From Eledone cirrhosa (Eukaryota): 64,000 bases of DNA. The stretch is from the NCBI GenBank assembly GCA_964016885.1, contig OZ024764.1, positions 10,168,001-10,232,000 of the forward strand, read 5' to 3'. This document shows positions 5,601 through 61,900 of this stretch, in pieces. Below the pieces are notes generated by a model, which saw only the letters and a program-made list of their open reading frames with translations, ran no database searches and was not told the origin of the DNA. Numbering within the stretch: position 1 is the first letter of the stretch; each line of letters starts with the position of its first letter. The translations under genes and the position numbers were made by a program.

Positions 5601-8560
5601 CTGATGATCCGCTGTTCAGGAGTTCAAGGCAGAGCTGTGTCACCAATTCTGAATACAACTGAAGAACCACATCAAAAGTAAATGTCTTTCATTTTCTGCA
5701 ATTTGTTATGATGATGCCAATACAAATACCTAATTTTTGCTGGACCGGCAATCACTCTGTATAATCAGCTCCTGATTATTTCTGGAATTCTATAAGATTT
5801 GTTTCCACTCATGTATTTTTCGAAAATGTTATTTATTTATTATATAAATTAAATGATAGTATTCTATATGCAGGTGGGCCCCCTTTATCTCCTGGCAACC
5901 AATATTTTTGGACCCAGTCTGCCACTGTACATACATATACATTCATTGCTGTAGTGGAGTCTGTGCTGCTGTATGGGTCTGAGACTTGGACACTGACCAA
6001 GAAACCCACTCAGATGGTGGATGGGTGCTACACGAGAATGCTGAGGATGGCTCTGAACATTAATCAGTATACACTGAGGATGAAGAACTCAGAGCTGTAT
6101 GGGAGCCTCCCAAAAGTCAGCTCAAAAGTGACACAGAGGAGACTGAGGTTGGCTGGACATGCTCACCGACATCCAGAGTTGACACTGCACTCAGTGCTCC
6201 TTTGGGAGCCCCTACATGGACACACTAGAAGAGGAAGACCAAGGTTAACGTATGTTGATGCCCTAAGAACAGACACTGGTCTGTTGGAGATGCAGGACAT
6301 GGCAGCGATAATGAGGGACAGAGACCGCTGGAGAGAGCTCGTCCATGGATCTCGGGAATTTTACCCGCCCTAGAATAGAATATATATATTTTTTTTATTT
6401 ATTAAATAGCTCTGTACCATACATGTAGCACTCTTCTTTACCTTTTCACAGAAATACTTTACATATATATATGTGTGTGTATATATATATTATTATTTTT
6501 TATACTTTTCCAGTGTCCGATCTCCAGAAGCCATCACCTTCACCAAAGAAGAAACCCACCACGGGGCAGACTGGACTAAACTGGTTTCAACTTCGTCTCC
6601 TTTTCCATCACCTCGTCTCCACCATCCTCATATCACTGCCGGACACTACACTAACACCGCTCCATCGTCTCCAGCCGACGCTCCGCTGACCGAAAGCCGA
6701 CTGTTTGTTCAGAGACATACGCTGGGCGCGGTCAAAAAGAACCGCGCAGCCTATCTCTTGTATCTGAAGAACTCAGCCTATCACCAGGTGGAGAATTTTG
6801 ACCCCTGGGACCTTACGGAAAAGTATGACCTTTGTTGTTTTTTTTATTTGGAGTGTGGTGGTGGTGGGTTGTATTTTTCCGCTAGAATTTTTTCTTCTTT
6901 TATCACCATGGACGGGGTAATGGTGTTCGTGTGCGGGCTGGGTTGTATTTTTCCGCTAGAATTTTTTCTTCTTTTATCACCATGGATGGGGTAGTGGTGT
7001 TCGTGTGCGGGCTGGGTTGTATTTTTTCTTCTTTTATCACCATGGAGTGGGGTGGTGGTGGCCGTGTGCGTGTGTGTGTGTGTGTGGGGGCGGGGGTTGT
7101 ATTTTTCCGTTGAAATTTTTTCTTCTTTCATCATCACCATGGAGTGGAGTGTTGGTGGTCATGTGTGTGTGTGTGGGTGGGGGGAATGGGGGTTGTATTT
7201 TCCCGTGTAAATGTTTTCTCTTTCATAATCATCATCATCATCAACATCAACAGCATTGCTATCATCATATATATATATATTTACACAATCTTGCCTGGAC
7301 TTGTGCCTCGGAGGGCAACTTACTAGGTGCAAATGCCATGGTCATTCATCATTGTTTAACGTCCATCTTCCATGCTAGCATGGGTTAGACGGGTTTGTCC
7401 CATCTAGAGACAAGCTGGGTCAGGTGAGCTCCCTATCGCAAACCACATTTACAGTGTGAGCTGGGTGCGTTTTACCGTGTCTTTTACACGACCACTTTAC
7501 AATGAGGGCTGGGTGCTTTTTATATATATATATATATCATCATCATTTTACGTCCGCTTTTCCATGCTTGCAAGGGTGGGATGGGAACTGATTCTAGCTT
7601 GATTTCTACAGCTGGATGCCCTTCCTAACACCAACCTCATTTACAGTGAGTGCTGGGTGCTTTTTTGCCGTGGCACCTCCACGTCCACTTTGCAGTGGAA
7701 TGATAGGGACCCCAGTCTCTATCATCTCATTTCTACAGCTGAGTAAACTGGAGCAATGTGAAATAAAGTGTCTTGCTCAAGGAAACAACACATCACCCAG
7801 TCTGAGAATTGAACTCACAACCTTTCGATTGCAAGGCCAATGCTCTAACCACTAAGCCATGTGCCTCCATCAGATATATATATATATATCATAATAATAA
7901 TGAAAATATTGTGTACAGTGCTCAGGTGCACTACAACTCATCAAAAGTGTATGTATAGTACGTAGGGTAATGTACAAACGTCAGGAAAATGAACAGTGCA
8001 TGAGTCATGGTGTGCATGTGTATGGAGAACATTAGGTGTAGTTTTGGCGAATTTCGGCAAGCATGAGTGTTTTAAATGATGCAGTGTCTCGACAGCTAAC
8101 AACTGACGCAGGCAGTTTGTTCCATGCTTCATCATCATCGTTTAATGTCTATCTTCCACGCTAGCATGTGTTAGCCGGAGTTGTTCCACTTGAGGCAAGG
8201 TTAGTCGGGTGACCGTGTCTCTCGCGTATAGGACTACCTGGCAGGTTTTCTACGGCTGGATGCCCTTTCTAACACCAACCACATTTACAGTGTGGACTGG
8301 GAGCTTTTTACAGTGTTACCTACACGGCCACATTACAGCGTGGACTGTGTTTTTTTCCCTCCCTTTTTTTTTTATATGTATATAAATATGGCCATTTTGT
8401 ATTTTCCCCGTTTATTTGTAGAATTGCTGATTCCATACTTTCCGACTGTGTTGTGGATGTCCTTAAAGAAGTGCAGGTACTTAGCGATGATATCATCCAA
8501 CAGATTTATGAAAACGAATTCATTGCTGTCCCATCATCTACAGATCTCCAGAGCCAGTGA
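1..8560 (+). CDS. KIAA0753: KIAA0753 / moonraker (MNR/OFIP)-like centriolar protein, C-terminal 5 exons (gene starts left of window)
   Basis: Exons <1-299, 4248-4332, 5620-5677, 6514-6822, 8422-8560 join in frame (intron phases 0,1,2,2). Peptide ...SIQQMLHRLQQIEQEQLKIRQNWSTLVY...SPEAITFTK...YLLYLKNSAYHQVENFDPWDLTEKIADSILSDCVVDVLKEVQVLSDDIIQQIYENEF* resembles the recalled KIAA0753 C-terminus (MLQRMEEME..VRQRY; F.PW.IAE...EL.D.CE.YAE.VF.SEF). Recognised from memory, not by a search. Confidence 0.78.
747..1005 (-). mobile_element. SINE A head/central domain with a different 3' body and (CAA)n tail (partial duplicate 484-618)
   Basis: Shared head up to ..GGGGTC, then GCACCCAAGACACCTCCAACGAGATATACC.. 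Confidence 0.7.
1028..1760 (-). mobile_element. RTE-clade LINE 3' fragment (family A)
   Basis: FRYLG..GGC..AIVSRI..GW.KFR, MLRWMC, RRLRWYGHV; (ATG)n tail. Confidence 0.85.
4248..4332 (+). CDS. KIAA0753: KIAA0753-like exon
   Basis: Pyrimidine tract + CAG; QEQLKIRQNWSTLVYPVTSQRKGQAPHN; donor GTAACA, phase 1. Confidence 0.75.
4897..5340 (+). mobile_element. RTE-clade LINE 3' fragment (family A)
   Basis: [19 protein letters not shown]; ends CTTGCAAGCAGGGAAAAGCGGACGTAAAATGA..(TGA)n. Confidence 0.85.
5620..5677 (+). CDS. KIAA0753: KIAA0753-like exon (58 nt)
   Basis: TTCAG acceptor, GVQGRAVSPILNTTEEPHQN, donor GTAAAT; bridges phase 1 to phase 2 exactly. Confidence 0.65.
5940..6380 (+). mobile_element. 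RTE/RTE-X LINE 3' fragment, intact 139-aa RT C-terminus (partial sister at 56110-56310)
   Basis: ESVLLYGSETWTLT..MLRMALNI..RRLRLAGH..LLWEP..RGRP.LTY. Confidence 0.85.
6514..6822 (+). CDS. KIAA0753: KIAA0753-like exon
   Basis: TACTTTTCCAG acceptor; VRSPEAITFTK...ENFDPWDLTEK; donor GTATGA. Confidence 0.8.
7538..7868 (-). mobile_element. tRNA-derived SINE family A, full length
   Basis: Head GGAGGCACATGGCTTAGTGGTTAGAGC..GTTCAATTC (A/B boxes), central CCTTGAGCAAGACACTT..CAGCTGTAGAAATG domain, RTE-type tail. Confidence 0.85.
8422..8560 (+). CDS. KIAA0753: KIAA0753-like terminal coding exon
   Basis: TTTGTAG acceptor; IADSILSDCVVDVLKEVQVLSDDIIQQIYENEFIAVPSSTDLQSQ, TGA at 8558-8560. Confidence 0.8.
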
Positions 8561-14411: not shown

Positions 14412-26788
<12,377 letters not shown>

Positions 26789-28665: not shown

Positions 28666-28747
28666 GCTGTGGTGGCCGAGTGGTTAAGGCGTTGGACTTG
28701 AAATCCAATGGGTTATACCCGCGCAGGTTCGAATCCTGCCCGCAGCG
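28666..28747 (+). tRNA. tRNA-Ser (anticodon UGA)
   Basis: GCTGTGG/CCGCAGC acceptor stem + G73, A box TGGCCGAGTGG, anticodon arm TTGGA-CTTGAAA-TCCAA, long variable arm GGG-TTATA-CCC, T arm GCAGG-TTCGAAT-CCTGC. Confidence 0.96.
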
Positions 28748-40700: not shown

Positions 40701-43700
40701 GTCCTGTCCTGATGTAAATGCATATAATAATTTTTACTAGTGGACAGCTTTCAATGCTCCTGTGTGGGTGTCAAACATGACCTGTCTAACTCACTAAAAG
40801 TTGATAGAAGCCTTGGAGTGGGGAGACCCAAGAAAAATTGGGAAATTATAACACACATAACCCTATCAGTGAAGCCCTTTAGTATAGGGCAACTAACAGA
40901 AGTATTACTGTTACGAAAGGACCTGGGAAATTATAACACACATAACCCTATCAGTGAAGCCCTTTAGTATGGGGCAACTAACAGAAAATTGTATTACGGT
41001 TACAAAAGGAACTGGGAAATTATAACACACATAACCCTATCAGTGAAGCCCTTTAGTATAGGGCAACTAACAGAAGTATTACGGTTACGAAAGGACCTGG
41101 GAAATTATAACACACATAACCCTATCAGTGAAGCCCTTTAGTATAGGGCAACTAACAGAAGTATTACAGTTACGAAAGGACCTGGGAAATTATAACACAC
41201 ATAACCCTATCAGTGAAGCCCTTTAGTATAGGGCAACTAACAGAAGTATTACGGTTACGAAAGGACCTGGGAAATTATAACACACATAACCCTATCAGTG
41301 AAGCCCTTTAGTATGGGGCAACAGAAAATTGTATTACGGTTACAAAAGGAACTGGGAAATTATAACACACATAACCCTATCAGTGAAGCCCTTTAGTATA
41401 GGGCAACTAACAGAAGTATTACGGTTACGAAAGGACCTGGGAAATTATAACACACATAACCCTATCAGTGAAGCCCTTTAGTATAGGGCAACTAACAGAA
41501 GTATTACGGTTTCGAAAGGACCTGGGAAATTATAACACACATAACCCTATCAGTGAAGCCCTTTAGTATAGGGCAACTAACAGAAGTATTACGGTTTCGA
41601 AAGGACCTGGGAAATTATAACACACATAACCCTATCAGTGAAGCCCTTTAGTATGGGGCAACTAACAGAAAATTGTATTACGGTTACGAAAGGAACTGGG
41701 AAATTATAACACACATAACCCTATCAGTGAAGCCCTTTAGTATAGGGCAACTAACAGAAGTATTACGGTTACGAAAGGACCTGGGAAATTATAACACACA
41801 TAACCCTATCAGTGAAGCCCTTTAGTATAGGGCAACTAACAGAAGTATTACAGTTACGAAAGGACCTGGGAAATTATAACACACATAACCCTATCAGTGA
41901 AGCCCTTTAGTATAGGGCAACTAACAGAAGTATTACGGTTTCGAAAGGACCTGGGAAATTATAACACACATAACCCTATCAGTGAAGCCCTTTAGTATAG
42001 GGCAACTAACAGAAGTATTACTGTTACGAAAGGACCTGGGAAATTATAACACACATAACCCTATCAGTGAAGCCCTTTAGTATAGGGCAACTAACAGAAG
42101 TATTACTGTTACGAAAGGACCTGGGAAATTATAACACACATAACCCTATCAGTGAAGCCCTTTAGTATAGGGCAACTAACAGAAGTATTACTGTTACGAA
42201 AGGACCTGGGAAATTATAACACACATAACCCTATCAGTGAAGCCCTTTAGTATAGGGCAACTAACAGAAGTATTACTGTTACGAAAGGACCTGGGAAATT
42301 ATAACACACATAACCCTATCAGTGAAGCCCTTTAGTATAGGGCAACTAACAGAAGTATTACTGTTACGAAAGGACCTGGGAAATTATAACACACATAACC
42401 CTATCAGTGAAGCCCTTTAGTATAGGGCAACTAACAGAAGTATTACTGTTACGAAAGGACCTGGGAAATTATAACACACATAACCCTATCAGTGAAGCCC
42501 TTTAGTATAGGGCAACTAACAGAAGTATTACTGTTACGAAAGGACCTGGGAAATTATAACACACATAACCCTATCAGTGAAGCCCTTTAGTATAGGGCAA
42601 TTAACAGAAAATTGTATTACAGTTACAAAAAAAATTCTAAATAAGCCTACAAGGTAAAAATTAAAAATGGTCATCGCGGACCATTCTGACTGGTCTGCAC
42701 CTATTACACACCCCTGTAGTAGAGGATGTAATGAGTAAAATACTTACCTTCTTCTCGTTAGGGGTGTCGTTGTCGGCTGGGGCTGAACTAGAGTCCTTCT
42801 TCAATGTGGGTGCAGGGTTGACAAAGGTCTGCAGTGGGGCCCATTCCAGATATAGGGGCATGTGGAGGAACTGAAATGGTAGCAAGAAACAATGTGAGGT
42901 GAGGTGAGGTGAAGTGATGGAGGGTAGGTGAGATGAGGTTGGAGGGGATATGTGAATGGGAGGGAGTAGATGGGGGGGGGTCAGGTTTAGGTAGAGAGAT
43001 AGGCCATGGTGAGTGAGTGGAGGGGGGGGGAGGGGTGATGTGAAGCAGATAGAGAAAGAGAGGAGGGTTGAAGTGAGATATGGTTAGGTTAGGTGTGGGG
43101 ATGAAGGGGTATGAGTTGAGGGAAGGGGATGTGAGGTGAGGTAGAGAGAGAGAGGGTGAGTGGAGGGGTGGAGATGGGGTAGGTTGAGGTGAGGTAGTTA
43201 GGTAGAGGTAGAGAGCGAGGAGGTGAAATAGAGAGAAAGAGAGAGGTGAGGGGAGGTTAGGTGAGTGGAGAGAGAGGGAGAAAGAGAAGGAAAGAGAGAG
43301 AAAGAGAAAAAGAGATAGAGAGGAGAAAAAGAAAGAAAGAGATAGATAGAGAGAGACAGGGAGAGAAAAAAAGAGAAAGAAAGAGAGAGAGGAATGGTGG
43401 AGTTGAGGTAAAAGTTACCTTGGTGTACGCGAGGTTCGTGAAAGCTTTCTTCGCTTCACTGGGCGAGAGGAACTCCACAATACAGGAGATTCCAGTGGGA
43501 GGGAAGATAACTCTTCCCAGAGTTCCGTACTTGGAAAACAGCCTAGAAATCTCCTCGGCCTTCGTGCCAGCCGGAAGGTTCTTTACCAATATCACAGTGT
43601 GGCTCCTGGGGCCGGAAGCCTGGTGTGGCCGGGAAACAAAACAAAGAATAGAATTAATGAGATAAAAATTAGGAAAAAAAAAATGAAAAATAATCAAATT

Positions 43701-43807: not shown

Positions 43808-45362
43808 ACATATATATATATGTGTGTGTGTGTGTGTACATATATATATATATATATACCCATGCAAGCGTGGAACATGGACGTTAAACGATGATGATGA
43901 TATATATATATATATACACACACACAAATATATATATATATATATACACACATATATATATATATGGAGGCACATGGCTTAGTGGTTAGAGCATTGTGAG
44001 TTCAATTCTCAGACCGGGTGATGTGTTGTTTTCTTGAGCAAGAAACTTTATTTCACATTGCTCCAGTTTACTCAGCTGTAGAAATGAAATGTGTAGGCGC
44101 CACGGAAAAAAAGCACCCAGCTGTAGAAATCAAGCCAGCATCAGTTCCCGTCCCACCCTTGCAAGCAGGGAAAGGCGGACATAAGATGATGATATATATA
44201 TATGTATCATCATCATCATCATCATCGTTTAATGTCCATCTTCCACGCTTGCATGGGTTTGGACGGGAGTATTCCCACTTGAGGCAAGATTGGTTGTCTT
44301 GCTCGTATAGGACTGTCTGGCGGGTTTTCTACGGCTGGATTCCCTTCCTAACACCAACCACATTTACAGTGTGGACTGGGAGGTTTTTACCGTGTTACCT
44401 ACACGGCCACATTACAGCGTGGACTGTGTGTTTTTTTTTCGTGACACCTACACGACCTCATTTATTTAGGACTGGATGTTGTGGTACCAACATAACTTCA
44501 CATTTAAGGGGGTGGTGTGGATGGGTGGGGGTGGTGGGACGGGGTGTATTTTTCTTAGAGGTGCCTACTGACTGTAGGTTTCGCTTTGTACTTAGGCAAG
44601 GCGGGTCTTCTCTATATATACATATATATATATATGAAAATATTCAGGACTCCAACGGCTGTTTCGACAGCTAGATCCAAACTGTATAAGTGTATATACA
44701 TATATACATATATACTCTAATTTTCATATATATTTCTGCTCCCTCACAAGTTGAGTTTATTAAGTTGTGTGTGTTGGACTGTTATTTCTATTCAATACAC
44801 GCTTACCACGTTTGACTAGCGGAGCACGAGGTGACAAATTCATCTTTCTGTGTGAACGTTGGCAAATAGTGTTTGTGGCATTTAATCAGATTCTCTCGCT
44901 GATGAAGCCCAGGATTATCTGTTACAAACACACTCAGGGCGAAACAGATTAGGGATAATCTGTCCGAGAGATATAATGGTTATTGAGGCGGTTTGTATAT
45001 TTTATCATTCTGTCTGCTTCTTGGTTAAATATTTCAAACAAATGTGGTTTTTCAACCCTTGTAATTTTAGACACACGGTTTACTGTGTTTCTTACTATAT
45101 ATTATTAATCGGCTCAGTATTTATACTTGGAGCTTAATAGTTACAGGGTTCCAATTGAGTTTTAACTCTAATTTTCATATATATATGAGTATATAGTTAT
45201 GTAATAAACGACATAAGACAATTATTCCATTTACCAAAGGTTTCACGAAGACAGACGAGCTCAACACAGACGTCTGAAATCGCTCATGAGTGTATATATG
45301 TATATATATGTATATATATATACATATATATAAGTATATATACATACATACATGTGTGTATT

Positions 45363-48300: not shown

Positions 48301-49937
48301 GGCTCTAGAGGTGAGGCTGAAAAAATGTTTACCTATTTCTTCAGGATCCTTCTTAATTCTGCTGGGCATTACATGTAGAAGTCTTCCCTGTAAAGAGACA
48401 AAAAAATACATATAAACAGTCCATACTGTAAAGTGGCTGTTTAGGTGTCACGACAAAAACCACCATTCTCTCATTCTCTGTGGATAGATCATTGAGAAAA
48501 TTTACAGTGTTACAGTAAAGACTTTAATATTTAATGTGATGTAGTCATAGTGTTGTTTTGTACTAAATGTTTATAGTATCTTTACTGGTGGACAGATTGT
48601 TGTGAACATTTACAGTATTACAGTAAAGACTTTAATATTTAATGTGATGTAGTCATAGTGTTGTTTTGTACTAAATGTTTATAGTATCTTTACTGGTGGA
48701 CAGATTGTTGTGAACATTTACAGTATTACAGTAAAGACTTTAATATTTAATGTGATGTAGTCAGTGTTGTTTTGTACTAAATGTTTATAGTATCTTTACT
48801 GGTGGACAGATTGTTGTGAACATTTACAGTATTACAGTAAAGACCTTAACATTAAATTGATAGTCATAGTGCTGTTTTGTACTAAATGTTTATAGTATCT
48901 TTACTGGTGGACAGATTGTTGTGAACATTTACAGTATTACAGTAAAGACTTTAATATTTAATGTGATGTAGTCATAGTGTTGTTTTATAATTTTCAAGTT
49001 ATGTCTTGTTAATGTGGTTTGATGTGGTATAGGTCTTTAAAACTTAAAGAGACTAAACCCCCAGCCTCCTCTTCCATCCTCTCTATTATATCCTGTCCTG
49101 TCCCTTTTTCTACCCTATTCTGTTTACTTACTTGAAAGGAGCTGCCATCCATCTCTGATAATGCCCTCACAGCATTTTCGGGTATCATATAGGTGATGAA
49201 AGCAAACCCCTTCATTCTGTTGGTTGCTGTGTCCAGGGGAAGATAAACCTCCACAAGTGCACCTGTCAAAAGATTAATTAAAGTTACAGCCAGGTGAGAA
49301 AAAGAATGGAAAAATTTCCACCAATTTAAATGAGGTAGAAAATGTAATGTACCACATCGAGGGCAGTGTTAGGGTGACTACAAGCGGGATTTGAACTCAC
49401 AATACAAAATCAATGGTAAAATGGTAGAAAGGGGTCAGCATATATTCGAGGTCAATATTTTGATGATTTTAAGGTTTGAGTTTCTTGCCCATCTCTCAGA
49501 CATAAAATAATTGTTTCTATTTTTGGCACAAGGCCAGCAATTACCCAAGTGTATTACCGGTACTTTATTTTATCGACTTATTTTTTCACTTAAATTTAAT
49601 ATGTAATATATATGTAACATATCATTCCACTGCAAAGTGGTCGTGGAGGTGCCACAGAAAAAAAAAGCACCCAGCACTCACTGTAAATGAGGTTGGTGTT
49701 AGGAAGGGCATCCAGCTGTAGAAATCAAGCCAGAATCAGTTCCCGTCCAACCCTTGCAAGCAGGGAAAAGCGGACGTAAAATGATGATGATGATGATATG
49801 TGATTGCCTCAAACAACTTGATTAGTACCTGTTATATGGCAGCTACAACTTCGATTTATACCTAATATAATTTTATATATATATATTAACCCATGCTAGC
49901 GTGGAAAATGGACGTTAAACGAAGATGATGATACTGA

Positions 49938-49987
<50 letters not shown>

Positions 49988-52900
49988 TAAGTATTTCCGT
50001 GGAAAAGGTAAAGGAAAGAAGAGTGCTCTATATATAGTACAGAGCTATTTAATTACATAATAAACAACACAATATAATTATTCCATTACCCAAGGTTTCA
50101 CGAAGTCAGACGATTATAACAAAAGTGTCTGAAGTCACTCAAAGATTCCTTCTGATGAGCGATATCAGACGTTTCTGTTAGAATCGTCTAACTTCATGAA
50201 ACCTTGGGTAATGGAATAATTATATTGTGTTGTTTATTGCATAATTATATATATATATATGGAGGCACATGGCTTAGTGGTTAGAGCATTGGGCTTGCAA
50301 TCAAAAGGTTGTGAGTTCAATTCTCAGACCGGGTGATGTGTTGTTTCCTTGAGCAAGACACTTTATTTCACATTGCTCCAGTTTACTCAGCTGTAGAAAT
50401 GAGATGATAGGGACTGGGGTCCGTATTATTCCGCTGCAAAGTGGACGTGGAGGTGCCACGGCAAAAAAGCACCCAGCACCCACTGTAAAGTGGTCGTGGA
50501 GGTGCCACGGCAAAAAGGCACCCAGCACTCACTGTAAATGAGGTTGGTGTTAGGAAGAGCATCCAGCTGTAGAAATCAAGCCAGAATCAGTTCCCTTCCC
50601 ACCCTTGCAAGCAGGGAAAAGCGGACGTAAAATGATGATGAATGATGATATATATGTGTGTGTGTGTGGGGGGGGGGGGGGTCTCACCATTAACAACAAT
50701 AAACAAGAAATAAACAAGCCACATACCATATTTACTGAAAAGCTGCTCCAGATCTTCTTCTGTACATGTGTAGGGTAAGTTGCGAATAAACAGCCTTCCT
50801 GACTGTAAAGAAGCAAGAATATATATATATATACATACATACATATATATATAGAGAGAGAGAGAATAGTGAAGGCGCATGGCTTAGTGGTTAGAGCATT
50901 GGCCTTGCAATCGAAAGGTTGTGATTTAAATTCTCGGACCGGGTGATGTGTTGTTTCCTTGAGCAAGACACTTTATTTCACATTGCTCCAGTTTACTCAG
51001 CTGTAAAAGTGAGATGATAGGGACTGGGGTCCCTATCATTCCACTGCAAAGTGGTCGTGGAGGTGCCACGGCAAAAAAGCACCCAGCCCACACTGTAAAG
51101 TGGTCGTGGAGGTGCCACGGCAAAAAAGCACCCAGCAGTCACTGTAAATGAGGTTGGTGTTAGGAAGGGCATCCAGCTGTAGAAATCAAGCCAGAATCAG
51201 TTCCCGTATGAGCAAGACAAGGTCAGCCGACCGGACACTGCCCACAACAGGACAACCCGTCTAACCCATGCTAGCATGGAAGAATGGACGTAAAACGGTG
51301 ATAATGATGATGATTCTAAACACTCTCTGTCACTCCTATGTAGAAAAAGAACATTGAGTGCTTGAATTGAATTGCATCAATGTTTACCTTAAGTATATAT
51401 ATAATTAGGATTTAGCTTCATGCGTAGCTGTATATGGATATATATTAGAATTTCGTATTTCTAAAGAAATATGGTATGTTTACAGGTAAATATTGAGAAA
51501 GCCGTAGGTATGTGAAAGCCGTAGCTATGTGAAAGCCGTAGCTATGTGAAAGCCGTAGCTATGTGAAAGCCGTAGCTATGTGAAAGCCGTAGCTATGTGA
51601 AAGCCGTAGCTATGTGAAAGCCGTAGCTATGTGAAAGCCGTAGCTATGTGAAAGCCGTAGCTATGTGAAAGTCGTAGCTATGTGAAAGCCGTAGCTATGT
51701 GAAAGCTATAGCTATGTGAAAGCCGTAGCTATGTGAAAGCCGTAGCTATGTGAAAGCTGTAGCTATGTGAAAGCCGTAGCTATGTGAAAGCCGTAGCTAT
51801 GTGAAAGCCGTAGCTATGTGAAAGCCGTAGCTATGTGAAAGCCGTAGCTATGTGAAAGCCGTAGCTATGTGAAAGCTGTAGCTATGTGAAAGCTGTAGCT
51901 ATGTGAAACACCGGGGCTGACGCCATCTGGTGGTGTCCAGGTGTTTCGAATAGCTACGGCTTTCTAAATGTTTATCTGTAAACATACCGTATTTCTTTAT
52001 AAATACGAAATTCTAATATATATAATGACGTATTATATTCGTTTTTTCCCGTTCTTTGCAGGGAACGTTTCCACGAACCAAAGTATCGTCTTTCTGTCTT
52101 CCTCCGGTTGCAACGTCTTTTGAAATATTCACTTCTGCGTTCACAGATTGACTTTGTTAGTTTCAGAAGATCCCGTTAAGGGTGAAAGCAGCGATTCTTT
52201 GCTTAAACTTTAATCTGTTATTTTAATAAATATTTGCTCTACGGCTCATATATATTAGATATATATTTATCCTTATCGAGCCCTCTTTGGATTTTGTCTT
52301 CAAATTTATTATTATATATATATATAAAGTTCATATGTCTAAGGGTACAAGGTACCCCCAGAAATACATAGGTTGTCTATGATTCAAGGTGGTTCTATGG
52401 TAATAATTTGATATACCAGAACTTAATATCAAGATAAGCAGAACAAGTAAAATTCAACCAATTTTTCAAAATAAATCAAAATTAATTTAAAATTAAAATT
52501 AATCAAAATTAAAAAATATAATATAAATATTTACCTATTTGAATAGGTAAATATTTATATTATATTTTTTAATTTTGATTAATTTTAAATTAATTTTGAT
52601 TTATTTTGAAAAATTGGTTGAATTTTACTTGTTCTGCTTATCTTGATATATATATATATATATATATTTTAGGTTCACAAATAAACACACAGACAAAAAT
52701 TGCCATTTATGTATATAGATATATGGAGAGATAAAGTAAGAGAGAGGAAGTGAGAAAGAGATATAGAGGAAGAATCAACCCCAGTATTAAACTGGTACTT
52801 TTTTTATCGACCTCGAAAAGGATGAAAGACAAAGTAGCACTCAACAGGATTTGAAGTGAGAGAGCAGAGAGCTGGAATGAATACCACAAACCATTTTATC

Positions 52901-58900: not shown

Positions 58901-61900
58901 CTTTTGTTCTTGTTTTGGGACTTAAACGAGTCCTTCAAGAACTCAATAGTGTCGTTACTCCACATATTCTTGGCTCCTTTCCCTGACAATCTGTGAGCTT
59001 CCCAAAATTCCAAAAACTCGGAATTGTCATAAAGCTGGGGAAACAAAAGTTAAAATTCTACTATATATACTTGTGTAAAAGTCGAATTCTGTAAACCAAT
59101 TTATTCTCCTTCTTCACCTCCTTATTCCAGAGAGGGTCGTAGGGTCAGAGTCCTCAAAAATTATGTATAATATGTGCATATATACACACATACACACACA
59201 CACATCATCATCATCATTTCATTTTACGTCCACTTTTTCCCTGCTTGCAAGGGTGGGACGGGAACTGATGCTGGCTTGATTTCTACAGCTGGATGCCCTT
59301 CCTAACACCAACCTCATTTACAGTGAGTGCTGGGTGCTTTTTTGCCGTGGCACCTCCACGACCACTTTGCAGTGGAGTGATAGGGACCCCAGTCCCTATC
59401 ATCTCATTTCTACAGCTGAGTAAACTGGAGCAATGTGAAATAAAGTGTCTTGCTCAAGGAAACAACACATCACCCGGTCTGAGAATTGAACTCACAACCT
59501 TTCGATTGCAAGGCCAATGCTCTAACCACTAAGCCATGTGCCATATATATATATATAAACAATGAGTTAGAGACTTTGTTGATATGTAATAAATGGAATT
59601 ATGTTCATAAGAGATACGAAGCACACCACAGATAAATATTAATCTGGAGTATTATGACGCCGGGGTTGACTTTGCCTTTCATCCTTACGGGGTCGATAAA
59701 ATAAAGTACCAGTAATGCACTGGGTAATTGCTGGCCTTGTGCCTAAAGTAGAAACAATTATGATGATAATAGGAATAAATGAAATATATGTCACTATAGC
59801 ATCATTATTTATTTCATTATAGGGCGGTGGATTGGCAGTATCGGTAGAGGGTCGGACGCCATGCGTTGACGCATAGAGTTACGGCCCTTGCCATTCTGAG
59901 TTCAAATCTCGCCGAGGTTAACTTTGCCTTTCATCCTTACGGGGTCGATAAAATAAAGTACCAGTAATGCACTGGGTCATTGCTGGCCTTGTGCCTAATG
60001 TAGAAATAATTATTTATTTCATTATATATATTTCAGGGATGCTAAATTATAGCATGCCTTCTTCAGACAAAATACAATATTAGATGTATAAAATATTATA
60101 TGACAGACTCGTAAAGGAGACCGTATACGATCAATTCTAAACGGGTATATATATATATACTAAATACGTTTTTACATTATATGTTGGAGGCACATGGTTT
60201 AGTGGTTAGAGCATTGGCCTTGCAATCGAAAGGTTGTGAGTTCAATTCTCAGACTGAGTGATGTGTTGTTTCCTTGAGCAAGACACTTTATTTCACGTTG
60301 CTCCAGTTCACTCAGCTGTAGAAATGAGATGATAGGGACTGGGGTCCCTATCATTCCACTGCAAAGTGGTCGTGCAGGTGCCACAACAAAAAAGCACCCA
60401 GCACTCACTGTAAAGTGGACGTGGAGGTGCCACGGAAAAAAAGCACCCAGCACTCACTGTAAATGAGGTTGGTGTTAGGAAGGGCATCCAGCTGTAGAAA
60501 TCAAGCCAGAATCAGTTCCCGTCCAACCCTTGCAAGCAGAGAAAAGGGGACATAAAATGAAATGATGATGATGATGTTGATTTATGAATGTTCGTAAATC
60601 AATATTTAATGTAAAGACATATTTGGTATCTATTTTAATGAATAATTTGCTTCATGTGTAATTATTATATTTAACACAATAGGATTTTGTACACATGCTT
60701 GTTTGGAAAATTCTTTCAAAGTATGAAACAGCCCTTTGCACGGCTTATAATAATAAATTAACATATTTCCTGGCGTTGAAGATGCTATTTTTTCCCTAAA
60801 ATAAGTCTCAAAAATCTACCATGTGTCCTGTAGGCCGAAGGTTGTTTATTATTTTTTTTCAAATTTTTGGTTGTCGAAATTAGGGTGCATCCTCGAGGAC
60901 AAAGCGTCTTCGACGCCAGGGAATATGGTGCTCTATTTTGAGCTGTTTTTAACTTCTCCACCTATGTTTCTAATTATTTATATTGTTTTTGTAAAAAACG
61001 ATATGTATTTCATATATATTTATATAAAAACAGTCCACTCTGTAATGACGCTATTTAGGTAACACGGTAAAAACCTTCCAGTCCACACTGTAAATGTGGT
61101 TGGTGTGAGGAAGGGCATCCAACCGTAGAAAACCTGCCAGACAGTCCTATACGAGCGAGACACGGTCACCCGACACCAATCTTACCTCAAATGGGACAAT
61201 TCCCGTCTAACCCATGCTAGCGTGGAAGATAGACATGAAACGATGATGATGATGATATATATGTGTGTGTGTGTGTATATAAATGACCAGGTAGACCACA
61301 CACTGGACTATAAATGACCATGTAGACCACACACTGGACTATAAATGACCAGGTAGACCACACACTGGACTATAAGTGACCAGGTAGACCACACACTGGA
61401 CTATAAGTGACTAGGTAGACCAGACACTGGACTATAAATGACCAGGTAGACCACACACTGAACTATAAGTGACCAGGTAGACCACACACTGGACTATAAA
61501 TGACCAGGTAGACCACACACTGGACTATAAGTGACCAGGTAGACCACACACTGGACTATAAATGACCAGGTAGACCACACACTGGACTATAAGTGACCAG
61601 GTAGACCACACACTGGACTATAAGTGACCATGTAGACCACACACTGGACTATAAATGACCAGGTAGACTACACACTGGACTATAAATGACCAGGTAGACC
61701 ACACACTGGACTATAAGTGACCATGTAGACCACACACTGGACTATAAATGACCAGGTAGACTACACACTGGACTATAAATGACCAGGTAGACCACACACT
61801 GGACTATAAGTGACCAGGTAGACCACACACTGGACTATAAATGACCAGGTAGACCACACACTGGACTATAAGTGACCATGTAGACCACACACTGTACTAT

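Follow-up and report, generated by a model that had tools for sequence, protein, structure and literature searches.

A non-coding hammerhead ribozyme repeat of Eledone cirrhosa with a Penelope-like insertion signature

Animal non-LTR retrozymes are described as repeats with units of 150-450 nt, and a canonical stem III is normal for the hammerheads of those in invertebrates (Cervera and de la Pena 2020, PMC7229834). A preprint covering 35 genomes (31 vertebrates, three insects and one coral) argues that they are non-autonomous derivatives of Penelope-like elements (PLEs) (Li, Clavereau and Pollet 2026, 10.64898/2026.07.22.740005). Both the class and its link to PLEs are already in print there, the link resting so far on co-occurrence and sequence trees. 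PLEs themselves form partial tandems and inverted arms, carry a tail at one end and insert at (TA)n targets (Craig et al. 2021, PMC8557442). For one PLE protein it has been shown that it nicks and extends both strands, begins reverse transcription at two internal sites, which define the tail, works from RNA that is uncut and is required for the ribozyme of its element to cut (Frangieh et al. 2024, PMC11167929). Pseudoknots that join stems I and II through 4-6 bp are frequent in hammerheads and raise their activity (Perreault et al. 2011, PMC3088659). Two questions on which the repeat described here bears are what mobilises animal retrozymes and what purpose hammerheads serve in PLEs.

The repeat described here lies in a 64,000-nt stretch of the Eledone cirrhosa genome (contig OZ024764.1, positions 10,168,001 to 10,232,000), hereafter the window. 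It is a 451-nt non-coding hammerhead repeat, present in hundreds of tandem, inverted or 5'-truncated copies at (TA)n, that is probably copied in trans by the RT-endonuclease of a PLE; the enzyme would start at two fixed sites on uncut or circular RNA in which the ribozyme is predicted to be held off. From its sequence, the unit is likely a non-LTR retrozyme, that is, a non-autonomous PLE. In this family the PLE insertion signature is seen directly in a non-coding hammerhead repeat. What is added to the published link is a rule governing the two ends of inverted copies, read-through of the cut site and a family-specific predicted lock helix.

The hammerhead and its 451-nt unit

The motif at 44892-44971 (plus strand) is a real type I hammerhead, as first described, with a predicted cut after C44964, and every part named in the preliminary description was found at its position. 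A 7-bp stem I (44892-44898/44965-44971) is followed by the core CUGAUGA (44899-44905), an extra A between A9 and G10.1 (44906) and a 4-bp stem II (44907-44910/44937-44940), whose 26-nt loop II (44911-44936) has 17 nt complementary to the 5' flank. The GAA of the core (44941-44943) leads into stem III, which is 8 bp long counting A15.1-U16.1 (44944-44951/44956-44963), has a GGGA loop and runs into the GUC site (44962-44964). CUGANGA, GAAA, UH and three stems with stem I open are all present, with the one additional nucleotide after A9. The long stem III, at first taken for a special form, is the canonical one that is normal for invertebrate retrozymes (PMC7229834).

A strict descriptor (stems of at least 6/4/6 bp) found nothing in 100 dinucleotide-shuffled windows, and a loose one found 0.08 matches per shuffled window in the same number. 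The predicted fold of the isolated 96-mer is exactly the three-way junction, with an energy z-score of only -1.47. The Infernal-type check that had been proposed, here a scan of Rfam, gave no hammerhead match at the gathering threshold or at E up to 10, which is a result about the library and not a defining property of type I hammerheads. Elsewhere in the window, an 85-bp satellite (40839-42609; 20.7 copies, 96% alike) has a GCCC/GGGC hairpin like stem II after GUGAA, with no complete core found by the descriptor.

The whole insertion occupies 44714-45184 (plus strand) and consists of one unit (44734-45184; 36% GC) plus the last 20 nt of another (44714-44733). It is 5'-truncated, and its 3' end is fused to (TA)n. 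The direct repeat previously read as a 19-nt boundary of the carrier is actually 20 nt long (44714-44733 and 45165-45184) and represents the 3' end of a preceding tandem unit, as the same 20 nt are found at tandem junctions elsewhere. A target-site duplication was rejected, the repeat being the unit's own 3' end.

A genome search with 44714-45185 returned at least 106 matches (from 40 of 1,544 candidates scored), and the full-length ones among these are 94-99% identical. Exact-pattern searches, in which tandem units are counted separately, gave 229 and 233 matches for the window's family and at least 1,374 for the wider hammerhead clade, with 0 control matches for each pattern. The clade comprises two families, A (that of the window) and B, whose units are 53% identical. 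The unit measures 451 nt in the window's subfamily and 538 nt in the sister family B; in an older subfamily, which is 75% identical, it measures 463 nt. The tandem copies sought for this element are indeed numerous across the genome: up to seven units follow one another, each with one type I hammerhead, and at the junctions the 3' end of a unit (end point B, see below) is joined directly to the next unit start, with a period of 451-538 nt. In all 80 distinct family A loci (four near-identical loci, L053-L056, counted once and overlapping loci dropped) the element portion is unit sequence only, and these loci have no terminal repeats besides the partial tandems. ORF scans found no coding frame belonging to the unit within its 451-538 nt period; the linked RT/GIY-YIG ORF that had been envisaged is not part of it, and the unit thus lacks the RT and GIY-YIG ORF within the repeat that marks an autonomous PLE. 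Retrozymes, too, are short tandem repeats in which every unit has a type I hammerhead, with no protein coding and no LTR.

Across 45 copies, pairing in stems I and III stands at 96%, and 80 cells with double changes were counted against 30.6 in shuffles (reached in 0/500), although most of these compensatory changes reflect a single lineage split, A versus B, and the stem III arms are partly fixed by the search pattern. Stem I, for example, is UCUCUCG/CGAGAGA in family A and ACACACG/CGUGUGU in family B. The covariation of stems among genomic copies that had been looked for is therefore present in stems I and III, between the two families. Family B also has a shortened stem II, a GUA site and A.C where G10.1-C11.1 is expected, and the last of these may weaken its ribozyme. 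An extra A between A9 and G10.1, as in the window copy, is compatible with hammerhead activity. The Chrysanthemum chlorotic mottle viroid hammerhead reportedly has an extra core nucleotide too, said to be at this same position; here, unlike in the viroid, the insert varies in sequence and ranges from 1 to 3 nt among the subfamilies of family A, and the sister family has A.C at 10.1-11.1.

The preliminary description also proposed an undescribed family of cephalopod ribozyme retroelements. That the family is of the Penelope/retrozyme kind is borne out by its many copies and compensatory stem changes, whereas "undescribed" applies to the literature searched, in which no cephalopod retrozyme report was found; the supplement of PMC7229834, Repbase and Dfam may hold examples.

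The placement of the copy antisense in an RBM19 intron holds in the form of an RBM19-like gene, with minus-strand RRM exons on both sides at 43419-43610 (RBM19-like; downstream of the intron when read in the gene's direction) and 49132-49257 (upstream). The best PDB match of the exon at 43419-43610 is 1whx (RIKEN 1200009A02, E 1e-20), which we take to be mouse Rbm19, and it also matches 2cph RBM19 (E 4e-4). As these exons are on the minus strand, the ribozyme strand is antisense to the host transcript, and the window copy cannot cut the host pre-mRNA in cis. A domesticated ribozyme with a host role might be suspected from its position in the intron of a conserved gene. However, this reading is extremely improbable, as the motif is antisense to the gene and the copy is 99% identical to copies elsewhere, and hence very recently inserted. 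The intron copy itself is an ordinary recent insertion and not a feature of the host gene. Both flanks (44640-44690 and 45190-45290) resemble the ends of other TA-associated repeats, and the insertion lies in a nest of such ends; the right flank (45190-45290) has far higher depth in the contigs compared. Contigs X1-X4, of unclear kind, yielded neither an empty-site allele nor a piece spanning the stretch.

Insertion signature, template and candidate enzymes

Outer 3' ends fall almost entirely at two points. Among 119 such ends, 62 are at point B (45176-45184), which is used by the window copy, 50 are at point A (45102-45107), a TA-rich spot inside the unit that the window copy passes through, 3 are close to these and 4 are elsewhere. 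Point A is the putative first and point B the putative second RT start site. Between them lies a Penelope-type tail of about 80 nt (45105-45184, plus strand), with a small hairpin motif (45112-45133) that is common to families A and B, and family B has both end points too. (TA)n adjoins nearly all outer 3' ends in the flanks inspected; the scripted test (109/119) is loose, since it includes the element's own last bases. The outer 5' ends (n=41) are scattered, six at position 21 being an artefact of the length filter and a cluster at 383 coinciding with a TA-rich spot.

Inverted arms are found at 39 of the 80 loci: 33 combine A with B, one is A+A, none is B+B and five have one end unclassed. 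The first 25 loci were chosen by a query ending at B. In the 55 that were not chosen by a full-length query, the A+B:A+A:B+B ratio is 21:1:0, with a chance of about 6e-6 if ends are independent and equally likely (hand calculation). This near-strict A+B rule puts the two-start-site model, which comes from in vitro work, to the test in a genome, and would arise if the two target strands use different start sites. Rare variants common to both arms of single insertions (L053, L110, L111, L140 and L148) suggest one template per insertion. The partial tandems, inverted 5'-truncated arms and tail at one end are as in non-autonomous PLEs, and scattered copies that are inverted and truncated on the 5' side, with 3' ends fixed at two points, indicate retrotransposition. 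In older copies (L176, L177, L178, L185, L186 and L205) a SINE-like repeat lies antisense at point A, with differing truncations that suggest repeated independent insertion, and similar sequence is found at 19027-19227 of the window. The window also holds an intact tRNA gene (28666-28747; Rfam, 67 bits) and two tRNA-like fragments (7798-7861 and 50270-50327).

There are 366 matches anchored just 3' of the cut site. Among the 100 listed, 98 read through it and the other two begin 5-7 nt after it. With 5' ends not piling up at the cut site, the linear ribozyme-cut monomer was rejected, and is therefore not the usual template. For a circle versus an uncut multimer the evidence is mixed: one array has six identical units (L029), in another two unit types alternate (L106), and in a third both outer units have a variant absent from the inner one (L140). 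Rare variants are single in 116/128 cases, and these probably arose after insertion.

Template choice bears on a rival reading, which is possible but considerably less probable than the one preferred, in which the ribozyme cuts efficiently, the helix between its flank and loop II (next section) does no more than activate it as a pseudoknot, any extension being optional, and a circular monomer serves as the template, as it does in coral retrozymes. In favour of this, the predicted fold of the sense circle is better than that of shuffles (z -3.5, versus -0.8 for the antisense), and both the six identical units of L029 and the rare variants that tandem units have in common in L039, L059, L115 and L116 are consistent with rolling-circle copying. 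However, L140 has unlike units in a single insertion, for which a monomer circle would need later conversion.

Candidate enzymes for copying in trans are at hand, as intact TA-associated PLE ORFs are abundant in the same genome. They include a Neptune-like family (33,256 candidates in the genome search; 796-aa RT-EN frame) and several families with Hydra-type endonuclease motifs, these clade labels denoting motif likeness to the descriptions in PMC8557442 and not position in a tree. In one Hydra-type family the TA-fused ends lie 80 nt from each other and the ORF follows end B (L232), which makes its clade a first, weak candidate for the partner. The likeness of its tail to that of the unit is weak: 6/1000 shuffles reach the score for the window's subfamily, and 254/1000 and 208/1000 for the other two units. 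As for a parent element, BLAST comparison of the unit with the Neptune-like and Hydra-type (C) families examined gave no significant match.

Alternatively, the unit could be the terminal repeat (pLTR) of an autonomous PLE and the copies its 5'-truncated ends. The tail, inversion and TA pattern are the same as in autonomous PLEs, most PLE insertions are 5'-truncated, only part of the approximately 1,400 copies was read, and at two single loci the unit is directly joined to an ORF (Poseidon-like in L156, Hydra-like in L115). These two junctions, however, involve different clades, are single cases and lie within the endonuclease region. Moreover, tandem junctions return end B straight to the unit start up to seven times, whereas in an autonomous PLE of this genome the ORF follows end B (L232). 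A pLTR is therefore unlikely, and the non-autonomous reading is preferred. The L156 and L115 junctions have no TA tract and may be due to template switching or target deletion.

Several other PLE ends were encountered. A high-copy Hydra-type autonomous PLE (L214-L233), of which the window holds a small inverted copy (20033-20210), has two TA-fused ends 80 nt apart and a hammerhead with UUGAUAA instead of CUGAUGA as its U3-A8 core, a long stem II and a 4-bp stem III. An inverted pair of another hammerhead-like PLE end (19578-19881), in which the core is CUGACGA, stem II is long and stem III is minimal or decayed, lies near a minus-strand ubiquitin-conjugating-enzyme exon (19441-19542). A minimal PLE-type hammerhead with a palindromic 2-bp stem III is found on the minus strand at 60015-60074 and has many relatives in the fetched loci. 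A young Neptune-like PLE (L091-L098) has an upstream ORF, the 796-aa RT-EN frame in another frame and a microsatellite-like 3' UTR, with no hammerhead assignable by the descriptor.

Predicted pairing of the 5' flank with loop II

Two segments of the 5' flank (plus strand) can pair with loop II. The proximal one, P0a (44883-44887 with 44913-44917, 5 bp), has the geometry of a loop II pseudoknot and is predicted to act as one, and the distal one, P0b (44869-44880 with 44920-44931, 12 bp), is a predicted lock. In the folding model, stems I and II have a probability of 0.91-1.0 in 44880-44985, but adding 44850-44879 drops them to 0, as they are in 44850-45010, in longer pieces and in the circle. 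The short construct is predicted to be in the ON state because it omits the upstream strand 44869-44880, which pairs with loop II. Thus, the earlier suggestion of cleavage as a monomer agrees with the prediction for 44880-44985, but with 44850-44879 included the ribozyme is predicted to be blocked, and cleavage as a free monomer in the natural context is doubtful. The blocked state, which is predicted to form before the 3' half of the ribozyme is made, is favoured by 4-6 kcal/mol in a model that cannot score pseudoknots, so that their energy is left out of this ON-OFF gap. With a return linker of only 5 nt, the helix as a whole appears too long to form alongside stem II. Pairing of loop II with the GAAA/stem III strand was rejected as an alternative fold (probability at most 0.01). 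A lock of this kind, if it is as predicted, has consequences for the design of assays of the ribozyme.

The two-part helix recurs in family B, where its sequences are different. Pairing of the helix amounts to 87% across 25 copies of family A and 89.5% across 13 copies of family B, P0a being the best-kept part (119/125 and 86/87 cells paired, respectively). When flank and loop II come from the same family, the mean duplex energies are -15.3 and -17.9 kcal/mol, and when they come from different families, -8.5 and -9.4 (44/49 rows kept, the other five having a flank without the upstream search motif). Changes within each family are almost only wobble, and double changes do not exceed those in shuffles (2 cells in A, 81/500; 0 cells in B, 500/500). 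In the old copies L181, L199 and L205 the pairing is no better than in shuffles, and the close subfamily L025 folds to the ON state in a 135-nt context.

For the rival reading of an activating pseudoknot, P0a fits the 4-6 bp pseudoknots between stems I and II that commonly raise activity (PMC3088659); in addition, it is the best-kept part of the helix, and the ON-OFF gap leaves out pseudoknot energy. On the other hand, both families retain the distal 12 bp and, on geometric grounds, the whole seems too long to coexist with stem II. The helix could also be chance complementarity in AT-rich sequence, the ribozyme a passenger or relic and the repeat a satellite spread by DNA-level recombination. 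Some arrays may have grown after insertion (L029, L106), cleavage was seen in only 1/9 retrozyme dimers tested in the Xenopus preprint, and PAc insertion in vitro did not require the hammerhead (PMC11167929). When the register of the helix is slid, however, only 25-48% is paired, the core and stems are kept with compensatory changes across 53% unit identity, and dispersed copies, 5'-truncated and inverted, with two fixed 3' ends mark retrotransposition. A passenger ribozyme is accordingly very unlikely.

On the preferred reading of a ribozyme held off, tandem copies would give rise to multimeric RNA, in which the nascent 5' flank is predicted to pair with loop II before the 3' half of the ribozyme appears, so that most RNA would stay uncut. 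Should the distal 12 bp open, perhaps with the help of a protein, the proximal 5 bp would become a stabilising pseudoknot and the ribozyme would cut, and cut monomers could be circularised as in known retrozymes. A PLE protein would then nick both strands of the (TA)n target, and cDNA would begin at site A on one strand and at site B on the other, from the same RNA; what is observed is the A+B rule and the fixed position of both ends, and the enzymatic step is modelled on Anolis PAc in vitro. As the copies show, the cDNA passes the cut site, often continues beyond one unit and ends at random, and the window copy would be a direct 471-nt copy begun at site B. More tentatively, and with the odds against it, the family-specific two-part helix of 17-20 bp may be a protein-gated switch that locks the ribozyme during transcription and is opened by a Penelope-type protein, one PLE dimer priming both strands at two fixed sites of the same RNA. 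If so, animal retrozymes would be linked in their mechanism to PLE enzymes, and both the tail and the inverted arms of PLEs would have an explanation. With a 451-nt unit, copies that are young and a genome that also has intact candidate enzymes, the family is a small system for reconstitution.

Comparison with known systems

The loop II helix has counterparts in other hammerheads. An attenuated satellite-RNA hammerhead is said to exist, to which the one here may be likened in the pairing of loop II with sequence beside stem I, the helix here being a predicted one. Such pairing is also seen in pseudoknotted hammerheads (PMC3088659), but there the helix is 4-6 bp and activating, whereas here it is 17-20 bp in two parts.

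As in the EN+ PLEs described in PMC8557442 and PMC11167929, the copies form partial tandems, are inverted and 5'-truncated with a tail at one end, and have a hammerhead upstream of the tail and uncut RNA as the probable template; their (TA)n targets are those of Neptune, Naiad and Hydra (PMC8557442). Unlike EN+ PLEs, the unit has no ORF, its tail is approximately 80-95 nt rather than 30-40 (PMC8557442, PMC11167929), and it has a full stem III where the PLE hammerhead is minimal. Both end points here are TA-rich, and priming may use homology, unlike that of PAc in vitro (PMC11167929).

With non-LTR retrozymes, as presented in PMC7229834 and 10.64898/2026.07.22.740005, the family has in common a short non-coding tandem unit of low GC, dispersed monomers, dimers and multimers, and autonomous PLEs in the same genome, together with one canonical type I hammerhead per unit (PMC7229834). 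At 451-538 nt, the unit is at or above the 150-450 nt of PMC7229834 and within the 51-972 of 10.64898/2026.07.22.740005. Retrozymes give rise to RNA of both linear and circular form, and the unit here is known from genomic copies alone. Unlike in retrozymes, no target duplication is visible in (TA)n. The ribozyme is predicted to be blocked, which among animals is reported in PMC7229834 for some mussel circles only, and the two fixed 3' ends with their A+B inversions are without counterpart in the retrozyme descriptions compared.
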